Origin: Escherichia phage P151
Sequence record: PP083182.1
Strand: one strand, 5' to 3'
Length of the DNA stretch: 40,500 nt
Below are positions 3,504 to 40,500 of the stretch, one piece after another. The position numbers and the translations under genes were made by a program. Under the pieces are notes generated by a model, which had not been told where the DNA came from, ran no database searches, and saw only the letters and a program-made list of their open reading frames with translations. The first letter of the stretch is position 1. Every line of letters begins with the position of its first letter.

Positions 3504-3797
3504 ATGGCTATTACTAAACGTTTTAAAGTATCATTCGAAATGACCGTAAAGGTTGACTCTGAGACTGAAGATATGCTGAAAGAACGTATCTTGGATTTGG
3601 CTCGTAGCATTCGTGATGGTGAGTCCGTGAGTGCACAGGACAAAGAGTTACTCGTGCAGGCTCTTACTCATGGTGCCGATGGTGTTGTTGCCTTTGCTGT
3701 TAAGCAGGGAGTTCGTAATGAAATCCGTGAGATGGGCATTGAGCACCACGGAGAGGGCATTAAGTTTGCACCAGCTACTATTCGTGAGGTGAAGTAA
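3504..3797 (+). CDS. gp5.5-like protein (97 aa)
   Basis: N-terminal M-A-(I/M)-TK-(R/K)-FKVSF and C-terminal ATxREV resemble T7 gp5.5; located directly after gene 5. Confidence 0.7.
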   Translation: MAITKRFKVSFEMTVKVDSETEDMLKERILDLARSIRDGESVSAQDKELLVQALTHGADGVVAFAVKQGVRNEIREMGIEHHGEGIKFAPATIREVK

Positions 3798-4006: not shown

Positions 4007-4185
4007 GCATATCTAAAAGTGACACTGTAACTATGCCTCGTGAAGCATGGAACGATGTTAACGCATATATTGAGTTCCTTGAGGGTCGCCTAGCGAAGCT
4101 GAATGCTCTCGAGGCCCACGGTGTAGACAATTGGTGTGGATATGATGATGCCATAACTGAACTCTTTACGGAGGATGACGTATGA
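4003..4185 (+). CDS. gp5.9-like protein (60 aa), possible RecBCD inhibitor homolog
   Basis: ATGA overlap with the 5.7 stop; acidic small protein at the T7 gene 5.9 position. Confidence 0.5.
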   Translation: MSISKSDTVTMPREAWNDVNAYIEFLEGRLAKLNALEAHGVDNWCGYDDAITELFTEDDV

Positions 4186-4475
4186 GTAACCCATTAACTG
4201 CAACAGAAATCCTACTGTCTAACTTACTGGCTGATGTACCTTGGTGCGATGAGTTGCCAGATGAGTTCGAACTGTTCGTGTCTGGAGATTGGACTGACGA
4301 AGGGAAGACCGAAGGTAAACTTGATGTTGTCAAACACTTACCTTCTGGTCGTTTCTTTGAGTGCTTCTTCACTCGACATGGCGACCACTGGCAAGGCTAT
4401 GAGACTTCCTTTGATGGATGTAGTGAAGTAGAACCTTATGAAGCCACTGTAATCTTATGGAAGGAGGTGAAGTAA
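4182..4475 (+). CDS. Hypothetical protein (97 aa), no T7 counterpart
   Basis: ORF with GGAGG RBS; start overlaps the 5.9 stop and stop overlaps the gene 6 start (translational coupling); acidic, Cys/His-containing. Confidence 0.6.
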   Translation: MSNPLTATEILLSNLLADVPWCDELPDEFELFVSGDWTDEGKTEGKLDVVKHLPSGRFFECFFTRHGDHWQGYETSFDGCSEVEPYEATVILWKEVK

Positions 4476-6097: not shown

Positions 6098-6484
6098 ATG
6101 ATTACAGCACATAAGTGCACAGAACGTGCGGCAGCTATTGTCTGGACTGTGGAGCACTTAGGGTTGCCAGAAGGGTTCACTACGTTAAGCGAGTACGCTG
6201 ACTACGTGGATGGGCTTATGGATGACGCTGGGTACGAAGAGTTCTACTTTAAGAATGCCAAGGGTTATCCTGTGGCTTATGTAGCGCTCTGTATCAGCAA
6301 CGACATACACCATAAGGGTGACATATTGGACATCACCAATATAGTCATTAAGCCATGCTCCGGGTATGCACCTTGGGTCTGGCGCTGGGTGTTAGCTGAG
6401 GCGACTCGTAGAGGTTGCCATTGGGTCTCCCGTTGTGTGCATGAACACGATGGGTCAATTCGAAACGTATTCAAGAGGGTATAA
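6098..6484 (+). CDS. gp7-like protein (128 aa)
   Basis: ORF with AGGAGG RBS at the T7 gene 7 position. Confidence 0.55.
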   Translation: MITAHKCTERAAAIVWTVEHLGLPEGFTTLSEYADYVDGLMDDAGYEEFYFKNAKGYPVAYVALCISNDIHHKGDILDITNIVIKPCSGYAPWVWRWVLAEATRRGCHWVSRCVHEHDGSIRNVFKRV

Positions 6485-9511: not shown

Positions 9512-10546
9512 ATGGCTAACATGACTGGTGGACAACAGATTGGTAAGGACCAAGGTAAAGGCATGAGCGCTGGTGATAAACTGGCTCTGTTCCTGAAGGT
9601 CTTCGGCGGTGAAGTTCTGACTGCATTTACCCGTACCTCCGTAACTATGAACAAACACCTCGTGCGTTCTATTCAGTCCGGTAAGTCCGCGCAGTTCCCT
9701 GTGCTGGGTCGTACCAAAGCTGCTTATCTGCAACCGGGTGAAAACCTCGATGACAAACGTAAAGACATGAAGCACACTGAGAAGACCATTAACATTGATG
9801 GCCTGCTGACTGCTGACGTTCTGATTTACGACATCGAAGACGCAATGAACCACTATGACGTGCGTTCCGAATATACCGCTCAGTTGGGTGAGTCTCTGGC
9901 TCTGGCTGCTGATGGTGCGGTTCTGGCTGAAATGGCTAAATTGTGTAACCTTCCGGCTGCTTCCAACGAGAACATCGCTGGCTTAGGTACTGCAAGTGTT
10001 CTGGAAGTAGGCGCTGCGGCTGACCTGCAAGGCGACCAAGTTAAGCTGGGTCAGGCTATCATTGCACAGTTGACTCTGGCTCGTGCACGTCTGACTAAGA
10101 ACTATGTTCCGTCTGCGGACCGTACCTTCTACACCACTCCTGATAACTACTCTGCGATTCTGGCGGCTCTGATGCCTAACGCTGCAAACTATCAGGCGCT
10201 GATTGACCCGTCTACCGGTTCTATCCGCAACGTCATGGGCTTCGAAGTTATTGAAGTTCCGCATTTGACCGCTGGTGGTGCTGGTAATGACCGTGAAGAT
10301 GCACCTTCTGAACAGAAACACGCATTCCCTGCGACTGCTACTGGCAATGATAAGGTTGCTCTGAACAATGTGGTCGGTCTGTTCTGCCACCGCTCTGCCG
10401 TTGGTACTGTTAAGTTGAAAGATATGGCGCTGGAACGTGCTCGTCGTGCCAACTATCAGGCTGACCAGATTATCGCTAAGTACGCGATGGGTCACGGTGG
10501 TCTGCGTCCTGAAGCAGTAGGTGCGCTGGTTTTCAAAACGGCTTAA
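9512..10546 (+). CDS. Major capsid protein gp10A (344 aa)
   Basis: MxxMTGGQQ-x-G, GDKLALFLKVFGGEVLTAF, SAQFPVLGRT, LIYDIEDAMNHYDVRSEYT, ERARRANYQADQIIAKYAMGHGGLRPEA match T7 gp10A. Confidence 0.98.
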   Translation: MANMTGGQQIGKDQGKGMSAGDKLALFLKVFGGEVLTAFTRTSVTMNKHLVRSIQSGKSAQFPVLGRTKAAYLQPGENLDDKRKDMKHTEKTINIDGLLTADVLIYDIEDAMNHYDVRSEYTAQLGESLALAADGAVLAEMAKLCNLPAASNENIAGLGTASVLEVGAAADLQGDQVKLGQAIIAQLTLARARLTKNYVPSADRTFYTTPDNYSAILAALMPNAANYQALIDPSTGSIRNVMGFEVIEVPHLTAGGAGNDREDAPSEQKHAFPATATGNDKVALNNVVGLFCHRSAVGTVKLKDMALERARRANYQADQIIAKYAMGHGGLRPEAVGALVFKTA

Positions 10547-10671
10547 CTTCTCGCAAACTCGTAGGGGACACTGAGTCTCCTACTGAAGTTGAGCAAGAGC
10601 TAACGCCACAACAGAAAGCTGCTCGTACTCGTGCTGCTAACAGAGCGGCGAAACTGGCTGCTGAACAGTAA
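9512..10671 (+). CDS. Minor capsid protein gp10B, made by -1 ribosomal frameshift near 10528..10534 (G GTT TTC)
   Basis: Heptamer GGTTTTC lies 4 codons before the 10A stop; the -1 frame is open to TAA at 10669..10671 and encodes ...TPQQKAARTRAANRAAKLAAEQ, resembling the T7 10B tail. Confidence 0.6.
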
Positions 10672-10686
10672 GTAAACTATATGAAA

Positions 10687-10724
10687 CCCCTTGGGTGCCT
10701 TCGCGGGTGCTTGAGGGGTTTTTT
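10687..10724 (+). terminator. Tphi-like late transcription terminator
   Basis: CCCCTTGGGTGCC-TTCGCG-GGTGCTTGAGGGG stem-loop (with G-U pairs) followed by TTTTTT, directly after gene 10. Confidence 0.85.
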
Positions 10725-21108: not shown

Positions 21109-23250
21109 ATGGCAACGCCCTATAAAACAATCGCCACATATCTACTGGATTCAGTAACCACTGAGTTCGACATTCCATATCAATACCTTGCTCGCCGGTT
21201 CGTTGTTGTAAGTCTTCTGTCAGACTCAGGCGAGCCCCGTGTTCTCAATATGGGTTCAGAGTATCGCTTCGTCTCAAAGACACGAGTAGCCTTGCTTCGC
21301 CCTTGGGGAGCTAATGATGGATATTCTCGCATTGAGATTCGACGTGTGACCTCGGCTACAGACCGAATCGTGGACTTTGCTGACGGTTCTATCCTTCGTG
21401 CCTATGACCTGAACATTGCGCAGCTACAGTCACTTCATGTTTCAGAAGAGGGTCGTGAGCAGACCGCTGATTTAAGTAAGGCTTCCATGGAGCAGTCCCA
21501 ACAGTTCGCTGCTGAGTCCCAACAGTCCGCCACAGAATCAAAAGGTGCTCGTGATGAAACACTTGCTGCCATTGCGAGTGCTGGGGATAAGGCGATGACC
21601 ATTGCTCTGATTGACGATGACCCAACTCGTGGTGATGCCTTGGTTCGTGTTCGCCAGATTATTGATGGCCCAAAGGCTCAGACAGTCCACAGTAAGTTCG
21701 CCAGAATGATTGACGTGCTTGACTTTGATGGTGTGTTGGGTGATGGTGTCAATGATGATGCTAATGGTATCGAGAGAGCAGACCGCTGGTGTGCGACCAA
21801 TGGTTATACCTTAAAGTTCCCTCGGGGTCTCTATCGTATCACGCGCGGTATTGAATCATATGCTGATTGGGTGGGTGAAGGTTCTGCGACAGTTGGTACA
21901 TACCCTCTGTATGATGACAAGCAATTTCTTGTTGCAGGCCAGCGCCAGAAAATTCCTGGCTCTAACATCCTGTTCGATGGTATTTCTACTGCAAAGTTCA
22001 CCACAGCACGCACAGATAAGTTTGCTTCCTTCTCTTATGTGATTCGTAAGAATGGTCGCTCGGCCTACCGGTCAGGTGCTGGTATCCAGAAGATGGGTAT
22101 CATCCTTAACTTCGACTTCAAAGATTCTACAGGTGCTATTACTTACCCAAACAATGACAACAGCTCAACTGCTGACGTCGGTCTGCTTCTGGTTAACGTA
22201 GAGTCCAAGAACATTCGCGAAGTTAACGTTGGGGGCTACTACTCGCTGTCAGGTATTGTACACTTTGGTGTAGACCCTGATAACACACACCTTACCGAAG
22301 TACGTACTATGGGTGACATTGGACTATCTGTCATCGGTGACTCAACCGGAACCAACTCAGGGTTAAACTTGATTGGATGCTTTATTGGTGCAAACGACCA
22401 CCACAGCCGTAGCGTAATCACGGGGAATGAGCGTTGGGGTGACACTGCCTTATACATTGACATCCCGAGTGCTGCGGCTTCAGGTAGTCGTAATGGTATC
22501 TCTATGATTGGTGGTACCATCACAACCAAGACAAACATACCTATGAAGCTCGCTCGCTGTGGGGCAATCAACTTCACCAACGTTGTCTTTGAGAACGCGA
22601 CTCAGGCTGGCTCGTCTCAGGCTGGCGGAACCAAGCGATTCACAGGGACTGCGGATACAGGTGACATTGGGTTTGTTAACTGCCGCTTGAACGCCGAGCA
22701 GATTAAGAACACTGGAGCTCTCCTCGATACGGCGCCTAATGCAACCATTACCGTTATTGGTGGCAACAAGGACTATGGCTTTGAGATTTGGCATGGTAAG
22801 TCAGGTATTCGGATGAATACTGGCTCTGAACAGAACTTCCAGATGACTAACGACCCATCAACCATCACCTCAGGTCTTCGCTTCCGCAGAACCTCTTCTG
22901 GTACTCTCGAAGTAACAGTAGACAATGAGCGTGTTCTCAATATGAACAAAAATGGCATTGGGTTCGTTAAGACCCGTAAGGTTGTCCGTCCAGTGGTAGA
23001 TGGTGCCGTAACTGTTGATACCAACATTGTGTCACTTAGTGGTGGTACACTCGACCTCTCCACAATCACGGGAACTGATGGGCTGAACAGGGTGACGCTA
23101 ATGGCTAACACCTCCGCTGATATAATCACAGTGAAGACGGCTGGTGGTAACATTCGTATCGGGACTGACTTTGTTCTCAGCGGTTTCAAGACCCTGAATC
23201 TGGTATATAACGGTGCATTCTGGCTTCAGGAGGGCGGTCGCCCAGATTAA
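21109..23250 (+). CDS. Tail fiber/tailspike gp17: T7-like N-terminal adaptor domain plus pectate-lyase-like beta-helix C-terminal domain (713 aa)
   Basis: N-terminal ~150 aa (FDIPYQYLARRFVVV, RVTS-x-TDR-x-VDF-x-DGSILRAYDLN) matches the T7 gp17 N-terminus; the rest contains DFDGVLGDGVNDDANGIERA and Gly/Asn/Thr-rich repeats typical of tailspike depolymerases. Confidence 0.85.
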   Translation: MATPYKTIATYLLDSVTTEFDIPYQYLARRFVVVSLLSDSGEPRVLNMGSEYRFVSKTRVALLRPWGANDGYSRIEIRRVTSATDRIVDFADGSILRAYDLNIAQLQSLHVSEEGREQTADLSKASMEQSQQFAAESQQSATESKGARDETLAAIASAGDKAMTIALIDDDPTRGDALVRVRQIIDGPKAQTVHSKFARMIDVLDFDGVLGDGVNDDANGIERADRWCATNGYTLKFPRGLYRITRGIESYADWVGEGSATVGTYPLYDDKQFLVAGQRQKIPGSNILFDGISTAKFTTARTDKFASFSYVIRKNGRSAYRSGAGIQKMGIILNFDFKDSTGAITYPNNDNSSTADVGLLLVNVESKNIREVNVGGYYSLSGIVHFGVDPDNTHLTEVRTMGDIGLSVIGDSTGTNSGLNLIGCFIGANDHHSRSVITGNERWGDTALYIDIPSAAASGSRNGISMIGGTITTKTNIPMKLARCGAINFTNVVFENATQAGSSQAGGTKRFTGTADTGDIGFVNCRLNAEQIKNTGALLDTAPNATITVIGGNKDYGFEIWHGKSGIRMNTGSEQNFQMTNDPSTITSGLRFRRTSSGTLEVTVDNERVLNMNKNGIGFVKTRKVVRPVVDGAVTVDTNIVSLSGGTLDLSTITGTDGLNRVTLMANTSADIITVKTAGGNIRIGTDFVLSGFKTLNLVYNGAFWLQEGGRPD

Positions 23251-23265
23251 CATAAGGAGGACACA

Positions 23266-24279: not shown

Positions 24280-26039
24280 TGTCACAATCCCAAGAAGCTA
24301 AGAATGCGTTAATCATTGCGCAACTTAAGGGTGACTTCGTGGCCTTCCTGTTCGTCCTATGGAAGGCTCTTAACTTACCTAAACCAACCAAGTGTCAGAT
24401 TGATATGGCACGTACACTCGCTAACGGAGACCACAAGAAGTTTATCCTTCAGGCGTTCCGTGGTATTGGCAAGTCCTTTATCACCTGTTCGTTCGTTGTG
24501 TGGGTCTTATGGCGTGACCCTCAACTTAAGGTGCTCATCGTGTCTGCCTCTAAGGAACGTGCTGATGCTAACTCCATCTTCATCAAGAACATCATTGACC
24601 TGCTGCCATTCCTCGCTGAGTTAAAACCTCGACCGGGACAGCGTGACTCCGTGATTAGCTTCGACGTTGGATTAGCTAAACCAGACCACTCACCCTCTGT
24701 GAAGTCTGTAGGTATCACTGGTCAGTTGACTGGTAGCCGTGCTGACATCATCATTGCGGATGACGTTGAGGTTCCCGGTAATAGCTCTACGAGTTCTGCC
24801 CGTGAGAAGCTCTGGACGTTGGTAACTGAGTTTGCTGCATTGCTTAAGCCATTGCCCACCTCTCGTGTTATCTACCTTGGCACACCTCAAACCGAGATGA
24901 CGCTCTACAAGGAACTTGAAGATAACAAAGGGTACAGCACTGTAATCTGGCCTGCACAGTATCCACGTAATGACGCTGAGGCTCTCTACTATGGGGACCG
25001 CTTGGCTCCGATGCTTAAGGCTGAATACGATGAGGGCTTCGAGTTACTTCGTGGTCAACCTACTGACCCTATTCGATTCGACATGGATGACCTCCGTGAA
25101 CGTGAACTCGAATATGGCAAAGCTGGCTACACGCTTCAGTTCATGCTTAACCCGAACCTTAGTGATGCCGAGAAGTACCCGCTACGACTCCGTGACGCTA
25201 TCGTGTGCGCTGTGGACCCTGAACGTGCCCCATTGTCTTACCAGTGGTTGCCGAACCGTCAGAACCGCAATGAGGAACTCCCTAACGTTGGTCTGAAGGG
25301 TGATGACATCCATGCGTTCCATACGTGCTCTTCTCGTACCGCTGAGTATCAGTCTAAGATTCTGGTCATTGACCCAAGTGGTCGTGGTAAGGATGAGACC
25401 GGGTACGCAGTCCTCTACTCACTTAACGGTTATATCTACTTGATGGAAGTCGGTGGGTTCCGTGGTGGTTACGAAGATGCTACCCTAGAGAAGCTCGCTA
25501 AGAAGGCCAAGCAGTGGAAGGTACAGACAGTCGTTCACGAGTCCAACTTCGGTGACGGTATGTTCGGTAAGATTTTCTCTCCGATTCTCCTGAAGCACCA
25601 CAAGTGTGCCTTAGAGGAAATCCGTGCTAAAGGCATGAAGGAGATGCGAATCTGCGATACTATCGAGCCGTTGATGGGTGCGCACAAGCTGGTCATTCGT
25701 GATGAGGTTATCCGTGAAGACTATCAGACTGCTCGTGACCTTGATGGGAAACATGATGTTCGCTACAGTGCGTTCTATCAGATGACCCGTATGACCCGTG
25801 AGCGAGGCGCTGTGGCACACGATGACCGACTTGATGCTATCGCATTGGGTATCGAGTTCCTGCGTGAAGGGATGCTTGTGGACAGCCGTGTAGGTGAAGA
25901 AGAGATGACCCTTGAGTTCCTTGAACACCACATGGAGAAACAGACCATTGGTGGTGATGCTATCCATAGCTACGATGTTGGTGGCGTGGACATCTACTAC
26001 GAGGACGATGGAGACTCTAGCTGCTTCATTGAGTGGTAA
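24279..26039 (+). CDS. Terminase large subunit gp19 (586 aa)
   Basis: Same length as T7 gp19; [35 protein letters not shown] (Walker A-like), [30 protein letters not shown] conserved. Confidence 0.97.
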
Positions 26040-28362: not shown

Positions 28363-28725
28363 ATGGCTATGTCTAACATGACTTATAACAACGTTTTCGA
28401 TCACGCTTACGAAATGCTGAAAGAAAATATCCGTTATGATGACATCCGTGACGCTGATGACCTGCAAGATGCAGTGCATATGGCGGCTGATAATGCTGTT
28501 CCGCACTATTACAGCGAAGTTTTCAGCATAATGGCAAGCGATGGCATTGACCTCGAGTTTGAGGACTCTGGTCTTATGCCGGACACCAAGGACGTAATTC
28601 GTATCCTGCAAGCGCGTATCTATGAGCAATTAACGATTGACCTCTGGGAGGACGCTGAGGACTTACTGAACGAGTATCTTGAGGAAGTCGAGGAGTCAGA
28701 AGACTACGAAGAGGATGGAGAGTAA
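28363..28725 (+). CDS. ocr: Ocr (T7 gp0.3), DNA-mimic inhibitor of type I restriction-modification (120 aa)
   Basis: [30 protein letters not shown]...HYY...[50 protein letters not shown] nearly identical to T7 Ocr; highly acidic. Confidence 0.93.
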
Positions 28726-28880
28726 TGGCTAACAATACCACGCAATATGGCCTGACCGCTCAAACTGTACTGTTTTATAGTGACATGGTACGCTGTGGCT
28801 TTGATTGGTTGCTCGCAATGGGACACCTTAAGGAACTGTACGAAAACAACAAGGCAATAGCCTTGGAGTCTGCTGAGTGA
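28725..28880 (+). CDS. gp0.4-like protein (51 aa; T7 gp0.4 inhibits FtsZ)
   Basis: Hand-translated: [51 protein letters not shown], resembling T7 gp0.4; ATG overlaps the ocr stop. Confidence 0.8.
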   Translation: MANNTTQYGLTAQTVLFYSDMVRCGFDWLLAMGHLKELYENNKAIALESAE

Positions 28881-28924
28881 TAGGCTCAAGGTCGCTCCTA
28901 GCGAGTGGCCTTCATGATTACCAC
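28877..28924 (+). promoter_or_regulatory. RNase III-type processing hairpin (R0.5-like)
   Basis: GTGATAGGCTCAAGGTCGCTC-CTAGC-GAGTGGCCTTCATGATTACCAC, near-duplicate of the hairpin at 28281..28328. Confidence 0.65.
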
Positions 28925-28948
28925 TTAACACGCTATAGGACTAATATC

Positions 28949-29149
28949 ATGAGTAAACTTCTGGCAACATCTAAAATCAAAGGCCAACACACTGTAACTC
29001 TGCGTGAGTACGAGCACGGTAAAATGGGGAGCACCTACGTTGTTCGGTACGGTAAACAAGTCACGCATTGGATGAACGAGGTTTTAGCGCAAGAAGAATA
29101 CCAAGCCTGCGTGAAGCACCAAGCAACATGTTCGGGCTGGAATGGCTGA
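28949..29149 (+). CDS. Hypothetical early protein (66 aa), gp0.5-like by position
   Basis: ATG after AGGA RBS immediately downstream of the RNase III hairpin; the ORF-track 28877 start would lie inside the hairpin. Confidence 0.5.
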   Translation: MSKLLATSKIKGQHTVTLREYEHGKMGSTYVVRYGKQVTHWMNEVLAQEEYQACVKHQATCSGWNG

Positions 29150-29182
29150 TAACGCTATTTGCACTCTATGAGGTAACACCAC

Positions 29183-29383
29183 ATGTTATATACACTTGTT
29201 GCACTCGTTTACACTCTAATCGCGCTGTACTTCCTTCGAGACTTCCGCAAGGGTCTCAAGGTACACAAAGCTAACTTCTCGCACCTAAAGTATGGCTTCC
29301 TGCCGCGCTTCACTGTCCGTGAACGCAATGGACGCTTTAAGGCTAACAAGGTGGGAATCTTTTACATCGCAACGCTCAAATAA
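29183..29383 (+). CDS. Hypothetical early membrane protein (66 aa), gp0.6-like by position
   Basis: GAGG RBS; hydrophobic N-terminal segment LYTLVALVYTLIALYFL. Confidence 0.5.
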   Translation: MLYTLVALVYTLIALYFLRDFRKGLKVHKANFSHLKYGFLPRFTVRERNGRFKANKVGIFYIATLK

Positions 29384-29417
29384 CATTAATCTTCTTTCTT
29401 AAATAGGACACAATCTA

Positions 29418-33375: not shown

Positions 33376-33648
33376 ATGTTTACTTTCATCACTTCATTGG
33401 CTGCTATCATCTCAACCGTACTTGCTGCAACCTACTACAACCGCTCAAGGGTATTCCTCGTTGAGTTAATCAAAGAGGAAAAGAAATCTCATGAACTCAA
33501 AGAGAGACTAGAAGATGTTCTGCGTGAGAAGCAAGAACTGGCTGGTCGTATACCGATGTTAGAGTGGGAACTCAGAGACGCAAGGGCATTTGAGAGTGAG
33601 CGCACTAAGGCACTCAAAGAGAGAGAGACTAGTAGTTGCTTGGCGTGA
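33376..33648 (+). CDS. Hypothetical coiled-coil protein (90 aa) between gene 1 and gene 1.1; no T7 counterpart (gene 1.05-like position)
   Basis: AGAGGA RBS; N-terminal hydrophobic segment then charged heptad-like KEEKKSHELKERLEDVLREKQELAGR; flanked by phage promoters. Confidence 0.55.
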   Translation: MFTFITSLAAIISTVLAATYYNRSRVFLVELIKEEKKSHELKERLEDVLREKQELAGRIPMLEWELRDARAFESERTKALKERETSSCLA

Positions 33649-33696
33649 GAACCGAGAACTAGCGGGTCGCATTGAGATTGCACGTAAGGTTGCAGA

Positions 33697-33719
33697 CAAT
33701 ACGACTCACTAGTGGGGGA
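33697..33719 (+). promoter_or_regulatory. Phage RNAP promoter phi1.1B (CAATACGACTCACTAGTGGGGGA)
   Basis: 20/23 consensus match. Confidence 0.7.
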
Positions 33720-33730
33720 AACACTGAAAG

Positions 33731-33850
33731 TTAAACTCAAGGTCATTAAACAAGCCGTGACGAATAGCTGTCAAACCAGCGAGTAATCCGTAGTAACATC
33801 ACACCGTCGAACCGGAAAGGATGCTTGATTAGTGGCCTTCATGATTAACT
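33731..33850 (+). promoter_or_regulatory. Extended RNase III-type region (R1.1-like): motif half-sites about 100 nt apart
   Basis: Left half TTAAACTCAAGGTCAT at 33731 and right half AGTGGCCTTCATGATTAAC at 33831 bracket about 85 nt of extra sequence. Confidence 0.45.
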
Positions 33851-33883
33851 GTCAACACATTAACTGCATAAGGAAACAACATT

Positions 33884-36397: not shown

Positions 36398-36585
36398 GTA
36401 ATTTAAACAAAGGGTCACTGGTTAATAGTGATAAGAAGTTCTTCGCAACGGTAGAAGGCCAAGGCCAATCGTTCGAAGTCCCTGTGTTCGCTGTGTCTCT
36501 TGAAGAGGCCAACGAGTTAGCTGAGTGGCAGTATGTACCTGCTGGCTTCTCAGTGACACGCATCCGTCCAGACCGAAAGGTTTAA
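36394..36585 (+). CDS. gp2, inhibitor of host RNA polymerase (63 aa)
   Basis: MSN-x-N-x-GSL, KKF-x-ATVE, SFEVP and [11 protein letters not shown]-x-VTR-x-RP match T7 gp2. Confidence 0.92.
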
Positions 36586-36605
36586 TAGGACTCACTATTG
36601 GGAGA
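36583..36605 (+). promoter_or_regulatory. Phage RNAP promoter phi2.5 (TAATAGGACTCACTATTGGGAGA)
   Basis: Overlaps the gene 2 stop; followed by GGGAGA..TTTCCC hairpin. Confidence 0.8.
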
Positions 36606-36655: not shown

Positions 36656-37360
36656 ATGGCTTTCAATAAACGTAAAGTATTCACTTCCGCTCGTGGCGTT
36701 GCTGAACCTTACTGCTATCTGGCTAAACCAGACTTCGGTAGTGGTGACTTCAAGAACGAACGTGGTGTCTACAAAGTGTCACTGACTGTATCCAACGACG
36801 ACCCTCGCTGTCAGAAAATGATTGACGAGATTGTCGAAGCCCACGAAACGGATTATGCCGCACGTCTCGAAGAGTACGAAGCGAACCCGCCGAGAGCCGT
36901 AAAGGGTAAGAAACCGCTGAAGCCATACGTTGGCGACATGCCTTTCATGGATAACGAAGATGGAACCACTACGTTCAACTTCAAGTGCTATGGCTCGTTC
37001 ACTGACAAGAAGACTGGTGAGAACAAACCAATCGACTTGGCTATTGTGGACTCCAAAGGTAAGCGCATTCGTGGTGAGCGTCCGGCTATCTCTGGTGGCT
37101 CTGAACTGAAGATTAAATACACTCTGTTCCCTTATGGTTGGTCTGCTGTGGCAGGTGCTTCCGTTAAGCTGCAACTGGATTCCGTGATGCTGATTAAGCT
37201 GGTAGAGTTCGGTGGTGGTGAGGATGACTGGGCGGATGAAGTCGAAGAAGACGGGTACGAAGCTGATGAAGCACAGACCCGCAAGCCACAAAACGACTCT
37301 GGCTGGAATGAAGAACCAGAAGAAGAAGAGGACGATGAAGACGAAGATGGTGACTTCTAA
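36656..37360 (+). CDS. Single-stranded DNA-binding protein gp2.5 (234 aa)
   Basis: AEPY-x-Y-x-AKPD, DPRCQ-x-M-x-DEIVE, ANPP, GKKPLKPY, GGGEDDWADEVEE and acidic C-terminal tail ending DGDF, as T7 gp2.5. Confidence 0.96.
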   Translation: MAFNKRKVFTSARGVAEPYCYLAKPDFGSGDFKNERGVYKVSLTVSNDDPRCQKMIDEIVEAHETDYAARLEEYEANPPRAVKGKKPLKPYVGDMPFMDNEDGTTTFNFKCYGSFTDKKTGENKPIDLAIVDSKGKRIRGERPAISGGSELKIKYTLFPYGWSAVAGASVKLQLDSVMLIKLVEFGGGEDDWADEVEEDGYEADEAQTRKPQNDSGWNEEPEEEEDDEDEDGDF

Positions 37361-37806
37361 TGTCTAAGGGTTATGCAGGTCGAGGCACTCGTGTGGGTGC
37401 CTTTCGCTCTGGCTTGGAGGATAAGGTAAGCAAGCAACTCGAAGGGAAGAACATTAAGTTCGACTATGAGCGTTGGCGAGTACCCTATGTTATTCCTGCA
37501 AGCAACCATACCTATTGCCCTGACTTCCTGTTACCTAATGGCATCTTTGTGGAAACCAAAGGTCTGTGGGACAGTGAGGACCGCAAGAAACACTTGCTGA
37601 TTCGTGAACAGTACCCTGAACTTGATGTTCGCATCGTGTTCTCTTCAAGTCGCTCCAAGCTGTACAAAGGGTCTCCGACCAGTTACGGCGAGTGGTGCGA
37701 GAAGCATGGCATTCTGTTTGCTGACAAGTTAATTCCAGTTGATTGGCTGAAAGAGCCTTCTAAGGATGTTCCATTCGATAAATTTAAAGAGGTGAAGAAG
37801 AAATGA
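37360..37806 (+). CDS. Endonuclease I gp3 (Holliday junction resolvase, 148 aa)
   Basis: VGAFRSGLEDKVSKQLE, VPYVIPASNHTY-x-PDFLLPNGIFVETKGLW, KHLLIREQ-x-PELD-x-RIVFSSSR-x-KLYKGSPTSYGE match T7 gp3. Confidence 0.96.
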   Translation: MSKGYAGRGTRVGAFRSGLEDKVSKQLEGKNIKFDYERWRVPYVIPASNHTYCPDFLLPNGIFVETKGLWDSEDRKKHLLIREQYPELDVRIVFSSSRSKLYKGSPTSYGEWCEKHGILFADKLIPVDWLKEPSKDVPFDKFKEVKKK

Positions 37807-38237
37807 TTCTACATAACAAACTTGAGATAGTACCAACCGATTCCTGTGTAGAGTGGACAGGTGCGTACCACAAGAACGGTTATGGAGTAATCTCTTTGAA
37901 TAGGAAACTTGCTAGGGAGTTAGGGCTGGGGCGTGTTCAATTTGTACACAGGGCTTCTTACATCCAGAACGTTGGGTCTATACCCGAAGGGCTGGTTGTT
38001 CGCCACAAATGTGACAATAAGGCTTGCTTCAATCCCGCTCACCTTGAGGTGGGGACACATTATGATAATGCTTGTGATGCAGTTGAGCGCGGGCTATCTA
38101 AACGAAAACTTACAGATACGGAGGCGGAGTTCATACGTGGGTCAATCGAGTCTAACAGAAAGTTAGCGAAGCGATTTGGCGTAAGTTCTACAACCGTCTT
38201 CCACATTAAGAAAGGTAATAAGTGGAGGAATATATAA
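37803..38237 (+). CDS. HNH homing endonuclease (144 aa) inserted between genes 3 and 3.5
   Basis: VRHKCDNKACFNPAHLEVGTHYDN is an HNH-type motif (as seen from sequence, not profile-searched); C-terminal helix-turn-helix-like KLAKRFGVSSTTVFHIKKG; overlaps both neighbours' ends. Confidence 0.85.
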   Translation: MILHNKLEIVPTDSCVEWTGAYHKNGYGVISLNRKLARELGLGRVQFVHRASYIQNVGSIPEGLVVRHKCDNKACFNPAHLEVGTHYDNACDAVERGLSKRKLTDTEAEFIRGSIESNRKLAKRFGVSSTTVFHIKKGNKWRNI

Positions 38238-38692
38238 TGCCAAAGGTACAATTTAAACAGCGCAGTTCTACGGAAGCAATCTTTGTTCACTGTAGTGCAA
38301 CCAAACCATCAATGGATGTCGGTGTTCGTGAAATCAGTCAGTGGCATAAAGAACTCGGTTGGTTAGCAATTGGCTACCACTTTGTTATTCGTCGTGATGG
38401 AACCATTGAGGAAGGCCGTCCGGTAGATGTCGTTGGGTCTCACGTTAAGGACTGGAATAGTAAGTCAGTCGGTGTGTGCCTCGTAGGTGGCATTGATGAT
38501 AAAGGTAAGTTCGAAGCTAACTTTACGCCAGCACAGATGCACTCTCTTAAAGAGAAACTTGCAGACCTGCTGGACATGTATCCAGATGCAGAAATTAAAG
38601 CTCATCATGACGTTGCACCTAAAGCCTGTCCGTCCTTCAACTTGAGCCGCTGGCTGAAGACTGGAGAACTGGTCACAAGCGATTGGGGTTAA
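38237..38692 (+). CDS. Lysozyme gp3.5 (N-acetylmuramoyl-L-alanine amidase; RNAP-inhibitor homolog), 151 aa
   Basis: Start at MPKVQFKQR; AIFVHCSATKPS, VGVREI-x-QWHKE, GYHF-x-I-x-RDGT, VGVCLVGGIDDKGKF-x-ANFTPAQM, HH-x-VAPKACPSF match T7 lysozyme. Confidence 0.96.
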   Translation: MPKVQFKQRSSTEAIFVHCSATKPSMDVGVREISQWHKELGWLAIGYHFVIRRDGTIEEGRPVDVVGSHVKDWNSKSVGVCLVGGIDDKGKFEANFTPAQMHSLKEKLADLLDMYPDAEIKAHHDVAPKACPSFNLSRWLKTGELVTSDWG

Positions 38693-38711
38693 TAGAACTC
38701 ACTATGGGAGG
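38690..38711 (+). promoter_or_regulatory. Phage RNAP promoter phi3.8-like (TAATAGAACTCACTATGGGAGG)
   Basis: Overlaps the 3.5 stop; followed by GGGAGG..TCTCCC hairpin. Confidence 0.6.

Positions 38712-38762: not shown

Positions 38763-40500
<1,738 letters not shown>

Follow-up and report, generated by a model that had tools for sequence, protein, structure and literature searches.

Free-standing homing endonuclease genes of T4-like phages are preferentially inherited together with their flanking markers through co-conversion, as two reports describe (PMC2790892, PMC2330249), and in other phages homing endonuclease genes have been documented at the edges of exchanged blocks (PMC10448857). The MobE, SegB, and SegG genes of T4-like phages are intergenic endonuclease genes located beside essential genes, as is the HNH gene of Escherichia phage P151 that is the subject of this analysis. 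Cleavage and homing have been shown experimentally for these T4-like systems, whereas for the P151 counterpart both are read from sequence patterns. The Seg enzymes, moreover, are members of the GIY-YIG family from another phage group, whereas the P151 protein is of the HNH type.

In T7, the putative HNH homing endonucleases gp7.7 (39% amino acid identity over aa 13-144, 5e-30) and gp2.8 (37%) are full-length paralogues of the P151 protein with the same layout of HNH plus putative helix-turn-helix (HTH), and each is encoded directly upstream of a conserved gene, gp7.7 overlapping gene 8 and gp2.8 overlapping gene 3. We know of no published cleavage site for either enzyme. I-HmuI of Bacillus phage SPO1 (PDB 1U3E), an HNH nicking homing endonuclease, is 24% identical to the P151 protein; it is intron-encoded and 174 aa long, whereas the P151 gene is free-standing and encodes 144 aa. 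Finally, at the junction of genes 3 and 3.5, the Teseptimavirus members Yersinia phage phiA1122 and Escherichia phage Bas65 (JacobBurckhardt) carry full-length homologues with 69% amino acid identity to the P151 protein, annotated as "protein 3.3" in phiA1122 and as "putative homing endonuclease" (bas65_0025) in Bas65. Among the papers covered by a literature search, none was found to mention gp3.3.

The HNH gene at the gene 3/3.5 junction

The window, by which we mean the whole stretch of 40,500 nucleotides analyzed (PP083182.1), is a Berlinvirus genome (Autographiviridae, Studiervirinae) whose closest isolate is Shigella phage A7, followed by Escherichia phage P483. Positions 1-127 are identical to 40374-40500, so the window is a circularly closed assembly (with an overlap of k-mer size) of a genome of ~40,373 bp. 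Because of its permutation both ends fall within gene 4 (primase/helicase), and the true terminal repeats lie in the interior.

An earlier note, made from the bare sequence, had called an HNH homing endonuclease between endonuclease I and lysozyme, and profile searches bear out both the call and its neighbors (Table 1). The ORF matches Pfam HNH_3 over aa 47-90 with 47.5 bits (cut-off 24.8, E 1.3e-12) and PHROG 59 "HNH endonuclease" at 9e-32, scores that are far above chance. The protein consists of an N-terminal beta region that includes C15, the HNH_3 core, a helical linker, and a putative C-terminal HTH at aa ~105-137. In an alignment of 49 homologues, C15, H68, C70, C75, H80, L81, G84, N89, and D92 are invariant, and N77 is kept in at least 90%. 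By analogy with I-HmuI, H68, N77, and N89 would constitute an intact HNH motif, made up of a catalytic His, a structural Asn, and a metal-binding Asn, while C15, C70, C75, and H80 make a probable Cys3-His zinc site; these four invariant Cys and His residues are a feature of the P151 family, unlike I-HmuI. A sequence search of the protein against all PDB chains returned 0 matches, and I-HmuI was reached by structure prediction followed by a fold search. The beta-beta-alpha-metal fold (HNH_3/His-Me finger), on which the original call hung, is present. The check proposed with that call was for HNH plus DNA-binding domains. The HNH match stands above its cut-off; a DNA-binding tail is probable, though the several HTH Pfam families that match aa 116-137 all fall below the Pfam cut-offs, and NCBIfam likewise returned only a sub-threshold HTH match. 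A terminase-associated packaging HNH protein, as in cos phages, was considered and rejected, as the gene belongs to the DNA-metabolism unit and is separated from gene 19 (24288-26036) by about 13 kb.

Table 1. Features at and around the HNH gene in the P151 window
Feature	Position	Strand	Basis or remark
Phage RNA polymerase promoter, phi2.5-like; starts the 2.5-3-HNH-3.5 unit	36582..36604	+	match to the promoter consensus annotated in FE44
Gene 3, endonuclease I (Holliday-junction resolvase), upstream flank	37360..37806	+	Pfam Phage_endo_I 3.3e-78
Minimal block 100% identical in the window, L094, L095, and L096; apparent mobile cassette	37750..38382	+	mismatch maps
Shine-Dalgarno GAGGTGA within the last part of gene 3, used here by the HNH gene	37789..37795	+	direct reading of the junction
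HNH homing endonuclease gene, free-standing, counterpart of phiA1122 gene 3.3	37803..38237	+	144 aa, ATG start
Shine-Dalgarno GGAGGA for gene 3.5, in the last HNH codons	38224..38229	+	reading of the junction
Gene 3.5, amidase/lysozyme, downstream flank	38237..38692	+	Pfam Amidase_2 1.1e-16
Putative co-conversion tract, 5' end of gene 3.5	38237..38391	+	100% among the HNH-carrying Berlinvirus genomes
Phage RNA polymerase promoter, phi3.8-like, directly after gene 3.5; closes the HNH unit	38689..38711	+	
32-aa hydrophobic ORF at the T7 gene 3.8 position, not HNH	38763..38861	+	conserved in A7 and L091

As suggested in the earlier note, the ORF overlaps the stop of gene 3 and the start of gene 3.5. 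Gene 2.5 precedes gene 3, the HNH ATG overlaps the gene 3 TGA (ATGA, 37803-37806), and the HNH TAA overlaps the gene 3.5 ATG (TAATG, 38235-38239). The latter is the ATG at 38237 (MPKVQFK...) rather than the mechanically listed GTG at 38222, as alignment with the gp3.5 proteins of A7, FE44, and T7 indicates. The empty site in A7, AAGAAGAAATGAGTAAGGTACAATT, reads ...AAAGAGGTAAAGAAGAA-ATGA-GTAAGGTACAATTC, with the gene 3.5 ATG overlapping the gene 3 TGA. Relative to this intact site the net insertion is 434 nt, and the clean junction anticipated in relatives that lack the ORF is thus found.

The arrangement of the translation signals is a simple exchange. The HNH gene takes over the ribosome-binding site (RBS) and the ATG that serve gene 3.5 in HNH-less genomes: the GAGGTGA element at the end of gene 3 now serves the HNH gene, whereas in the empty site of A7 it is gene 3.5 that is served by its counterpart, GAGGTAA, together with the same ATG. 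The 3' end of the HNH gene gives gene 3.5 a new GGAGGA RBS and a new ATG, and the essential neighbors are therefore left undisturbed. The GGAGGA element is conserved, within AAGTGGAGGAAT, in Serratia phage SALSA, phiA1122, L091, and L092. The HNH gene is probably translationally coupled to its neighbors. As for transcription, the promoter matches place the gene in a class II unit, 2.5-3-HNH-3.5, that is bracketed by two predicted phage promoters (Table 1). No phage promoter was found inside the unit between them, so that the HNH gene is co-transcribed with its neighbors. Scans for sigma-70 promoters and terminators around the ORF gave background levels only.

The protein shows no sign of decay. 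Pairwise dN/dS values with five homologues are 0.06-0.10, so purifying selection acts on the HNH protein. Once fixed, a homing endonuclease gene is generally expected to degenerate, and one might on that ground suppose that the ORF is an inactive, decaying remnant that is passively carried. We regard this as very improbable, since the catalytic and putative zinc-ligand positions are all intact and invariant, the protein is full length relative to its homologues, and the dN/dS values are low. The gene, moreover, is not at fixation, there being relatives without a copy, and an identical copy has recently spread between backgrounds, as described below.

Slots for HNH genes in P151 and in other phages

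The T7 slots of gp2.8 and gp7.7 differ from that of the P151 gene, and both are empty in the window. By tblastn with T7 proteins, gene 5 (ending at about 3484) is followed directly by gene 5.5 (starting at 3504), and gene 7.3 (ending at about 6789) by gene 8 (starting at about 6809), in agreement with the earlier note's reading of the 5.3 and 7.7 positions as unoccupied; genes 2.5 and 3 abut at 37360, leaving the 2.8 slot likewise unoccupied. Neither gp3.8 nor gp5.3 of T7 matches anything in the window by tblastn or phmmer, and the 32-aa hydrophobic ORF is, as had been stated, all that the gene 3.8 position holds. Its 30-aa counterpart in A7 (L001, 3163-3255) is annotated as "carbohydrate ABC transporter permease", a label that is almost certainly an annotation artefact. 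Among the 668 six-frame ORFs of the window, the HNH-family HMM matches a single ORF, with no second HNH of the same family, and phmmer with the four T7 HNH proteins finds nothing besides the P151 HNH ORF. The empty 5.3, 7.7, and 3.8 slots are normal for Berlinvirus; A7 has zero annotated HNH genes.

Three segments without a counterpart in A7 (4008-4475, 28697-29398, and 33378-33871) contain no nuclease domains, only homologues of gp5.9 and gp1.1. Within A7-absent sequence there is a 97-aa ORF between genes 5.9 and 6 (4182-4475) and a 90-aa ORF after gene 1 (33376-33648), neither with a Pfam match; the latter has a hydrophobic N-terminus, and the remainder is charged and helical. The tail-fibre gene matches A7 and T7 gp17 in its N-terminal part only (21109-21471), the rest (21471-23252) having no nucleotide match to A7, which is the usual swap of a host-range module.

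The earlier note further described the position of the P151 gene as non-canonical. This does not hold beyond the comparison with T7: the 3/3.5 slot is occupied in phiA1122, Bas65, SALSA, Klebsiella phage mtp8, further Klebsiella phages, and Salmonella phage PRF-SP1. Homologues with 67-90% amino acid identity sit at this junction in Teseptimavirus (the Yersinia relatives of phiA1122 included), Teetrevirus, and Przondovirus, the last represented by about 40 Klebsiella phages, and Kayfunavirus adds a 54% homologue in PRF-SP1. The closest isolate homologues are those of the Teetrevirus members SALSA (SALSA_25, "hypothetical protein"; 90% amino acid identity) and mtp8 (86%), and they show the same ATGA and TAATG overlaps as P151. 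In phiA1122 and Bas65, which are Teseptimavirus, whereas P151 is Berlinvirus, the start codon also overlaps the gene 3 stop and AAGTGGAGGAAT at the 3' end provides the gene 3.5 RBS; the phiA1122 ORF is longer than that of P151 (152 versus 144 aa) and overlaps gene 3.5 by 29 nt. Indeed, in the junctions that were read, the HNH start and the gene 3 stop share 4 nt, and AAGTGGAGGAAT occurs at the 3' end. In PRF-SP1 (L098, 1041-1905), two ORFs of 141 and 149 aa lie between genes 3 and 3.5, the second of which is the HNH homologue. Within IMG/VR nothing is closer than 74% amino acid identity to the P151 protein.

Slot and start-codon overlap thus recur in five genera, Berlinvirus included, and the gene 3/3.5 junction is a slot that this HNH family uses repeatedly and for which annotations exist. 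The novelty of the P151 gene is limited to its occurrence in Berlinvirus, as both gene and position are already annotated in phiA1122 and Bas65.

Separate histories of the HNH gene and its flanks

In a collection of 50,697 phage records, the HNH gene is absent from every Berlinvirus isolate, A7 and P483 included. All 34 records that cover at least 80% of a 2.5-kb query end at about 83% coverage, which corresponds to the query minus the HNH ORF. These data support a compact insertion that the closest relatives lack and whose junction is clean in them. The earlier note had proposed a compact mobile insertion and had allowed that an orthologue in all close relatives would instead mean inheritance; the close Berlinvirus isolates lack the gene, and the substitution data below speak for the mobile reading as well.

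The informative relatives that do carry the gene were obtained by exact-protein look-ups in Logan assemblies. Five metagenome-assembled contigs encode the exact HNH protein; the four that were read are all Berlinvirus-like and have the gene in the same slot. The HNH gene is 100% identical at the nucleotide level in L094, L095, and L096 (pS 0.000). For L095 and L096, identity to the window is 91% in gene 3 (pS 0.26-0.29) and about 95-96% in genes 2.5 and 3.5 (pS 0.16-0.17). At a pS of 0.16, the probability of 0 changes in ~98 synonymous sites is about 4e-8. The identical block extends over 37708-38391 in L095 and 37750-38382 in L096, with divergent flanks in both cases, and comprises the HNH ORF with about 50-95 nt before it and about 150 nt after it, or about 630-680 nt in all.

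L091 shows the reverse pattern: its backbone is 97-98% identical to the window, whereas the HNH gene is 89.7% identical and the start of gene 3.5 is divergent. A third pattern is seen with SALSA, in which the HNH gene is 84% identical at the nucleotide level and genes 2.5, 3, and 3.5 are just 65-73% identical; the HNH gene has therefore crossed genus boundaries. Taken together, these comparisons indicate that the history of the HNH gene is independent of that of its flanks, and its mobility is well supported by the substitution patterns. Arrival of the gene in P151 together with SALSA- or mtp8-like flanks was considered and rejected, as gene 3.5 of the window is of Berlinvirus type (90-93%) and not of Teetrevirus type (65-69%).

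That the slot and the start-codon overlap are common to five genera could also be read as a sign that the HNH gene is ancestral to Studiervirinae at this junction and was lost many times, being inherited vertically rather than mobile. We give this reading very little credence. HNH divergence is decoupled from that of the flanks in both directions, with 100% identity beside flanks at pS 0.16-0.29 and 89.7% beside flanks at 97-98%; the SALSA comparison departs likewise from a shared vertical history, and the mosaic breakpoint coincides with the HNH insert.

HNH content varies among otherwise similar genomes. L095 carries extra HNH_3 genes at 4058-4420 and 6105-6435 (in the 3.8 slot and after gene 4) besides the identical 3.3-type gene, and in L093 gene 3 is flanked by a gp2.8-type and a 3.3-type HNH gene (393-824 and 1231-1665).

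The gene 3.5 tract, homing, and its alternatives

The two sides of the insertion differ in their relation to HNH-less A7. Gene 3 is 99.3% identical at the nucleotide level right up to the insertion point, whereas over the first 150-190 nt of gene 3.5 identity drops to 70-78% before returning to 96-100%. There are 41 mismatches in 38240-38425, the dense mismatches reaching to about 38425, and 12 of the 14 amino acid changes between the two gp3.5 proteins fall in residues 2-50. A tract of 150-190 nt of gene 3.5 that appears to travel with the HNH gene, together with an upstream boundary at most 53-95 nt away, is consistent with co-conversion. The downstream bias of the tract suggests that the cut site would lie in the 5' part of gene 3.5.

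The gene 3.5 allele of P151 also occurs apart from the HNH gene. FE44 and PcCB251, which are Berlinvirus members without a 3.3-type HNH gene and with a gp2.8-type HNH gene upstream of a divergent gene 3, are 100% identical to the window over 38237-38336, with the first mismatch near 38350. The downstream tract alone is therefore no mark of a carrier and no demonstrable immunity allele. For the same reason, comparison of carrier and non-carrier alleles yielded no target or immunity site: over its first 113 nt, gene 3.5 is the same in FE44-type non-carriers as in the carrier.

The gp2.8-type genes offer a parallel. In FE44 (L007, 2151-3000), pO103 (L008, 2146-2998), and PcCB251 (L009, 2118-3000), gene 3, compared in bins of 50 nt, has 46-84% identity to the window, against ~90-100% for gene 2.5, a block pattern of HNH plus downstream gene that resembles the 3/3.5 junction. 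In phiA1122 (L003, 2073-2500, compared with T7 10278-10702), gene 3, upstream of the HNH gene, is 74% identical to that of T7, versus ~95% elsewhere and 94-96% for the flanking genes, a divergence for which the presence of T7 gp2.8 at that place is a confounder; it forms a mosaic patch between the T7 gp2.8 slot and the phiA1122 gp3.3 slot. The gp2.8-carrying Berlinvirus genomes and the phiA1122-T7 comparison hint at a rule for the family, in which the HNH gene moves together with the start of the next gene.

Our favored explanation, to which we assign a probability of about 0.72, is that the P151 ORF encodes, as a free-standing gene, an active HNH homing endonuclease that belongs to the gp2.8/gp7.7/phiA1122 gp3.3 family and has an I-HmuI-like architecture. 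When a carrier and an HNH-less relative infect the same cell, the enzyme would nick or cut the relative's genome at the junction or shortly downstream of it, probably inside the initial ~150 nt of gene 3.5. Repair by recombination with the carrier would then copy the 434-nt insert along with ~150-190 nt of donor gene 3.5 and a stretch of gene 3 shorter than ~50-95 nt. On this account, the P151 genome may be an A7-like backbone that was given its cassette by a Berlinvirus with an FE44-type gene 3.5 allele. Cutting, and with it every later step of homing, is proposed here from the pattern of identity and divergence.

The alternative that deserves most attention is that the gene is kept because it benefits the phage and has spread by ordinary homologous recombination and selection, and not by cutting its own empty site. 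The benefit might take the form of interference with co-infecting relatives or of a nuclease-independent attenuation of break-sensing host defence. An HNH protein of Bas24 and a catalytically dead T7 gp3.8 are reported to attenuate the GAPS4 defence (bioRxiv preprint 10.1101/2025.09.07.674715), and the same preprint describes a T7 mutant without three homing endonuclease genes, gene 2.8 among them, that was competed against wild type. The dN/dS values indicate sustained selection on the protein, and purifying selection is likewise expected of a gene useful to the phage, while the family persists at the 3/3.5 slot over five genera. T7-like phages also recombine very often, such that a selected module would leave the same block pattern, and the identical block by itself does not separate homing from a selective sweep. 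However, that block is very short and centered on the ORF, the insertion point is kept to the nucleotide, and the divergent tract is one-sided, which are signatures of endonuclease-initiated gene conversion; in addition, all sequenced close isolates manage without the gene. As a replacement for homing we consider this account unlikely, although a benefit to the phage is plausible in itself and is compatible with homing.

The role of gene 3.5 gives the exchanged tract a possible further significance. The T7 gene 3.5 lysozyme also regulates the phage RNA polymerase, and each homing event would also replace the first ~50 codons of the lysozyme/amidase gene. It is conceivable, though we think it a long shot, that the cassette is more than a selfish passenger and drives exchange of functional alleles of a transcription regulator (gp3.5), or that the HNH protein doubles as a competition or anti-defence factor, a role that the GAPS4 preprint proposes for the homing endonucleases of T7. 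If true, the gp2.8/3.3/7.7 family would be a set of modules, each carrying the 5' end of the essential gene downstream.

The importance of the P151 gene is modest; it is an ordinary, well-illustrated case rather than a new kind of system. The locus nevertheless provides a clean natural example of an HNH cassette in several closely related T7-like genomes, and the defined bounds of the cassette (from about 37708/37750 to 38382/38391), together with the one-sided tract, narrow the search for the target of the gp2.8/gp7.7/gp3.3 family. For engineering and comparison of Berlinvirus genomes, mosaic breakpoints at genes 3/3.5 probably stem from endonuclease action, and the inheritance of markers could become biased in co-infections that involve HNH-less therapeutic phages.
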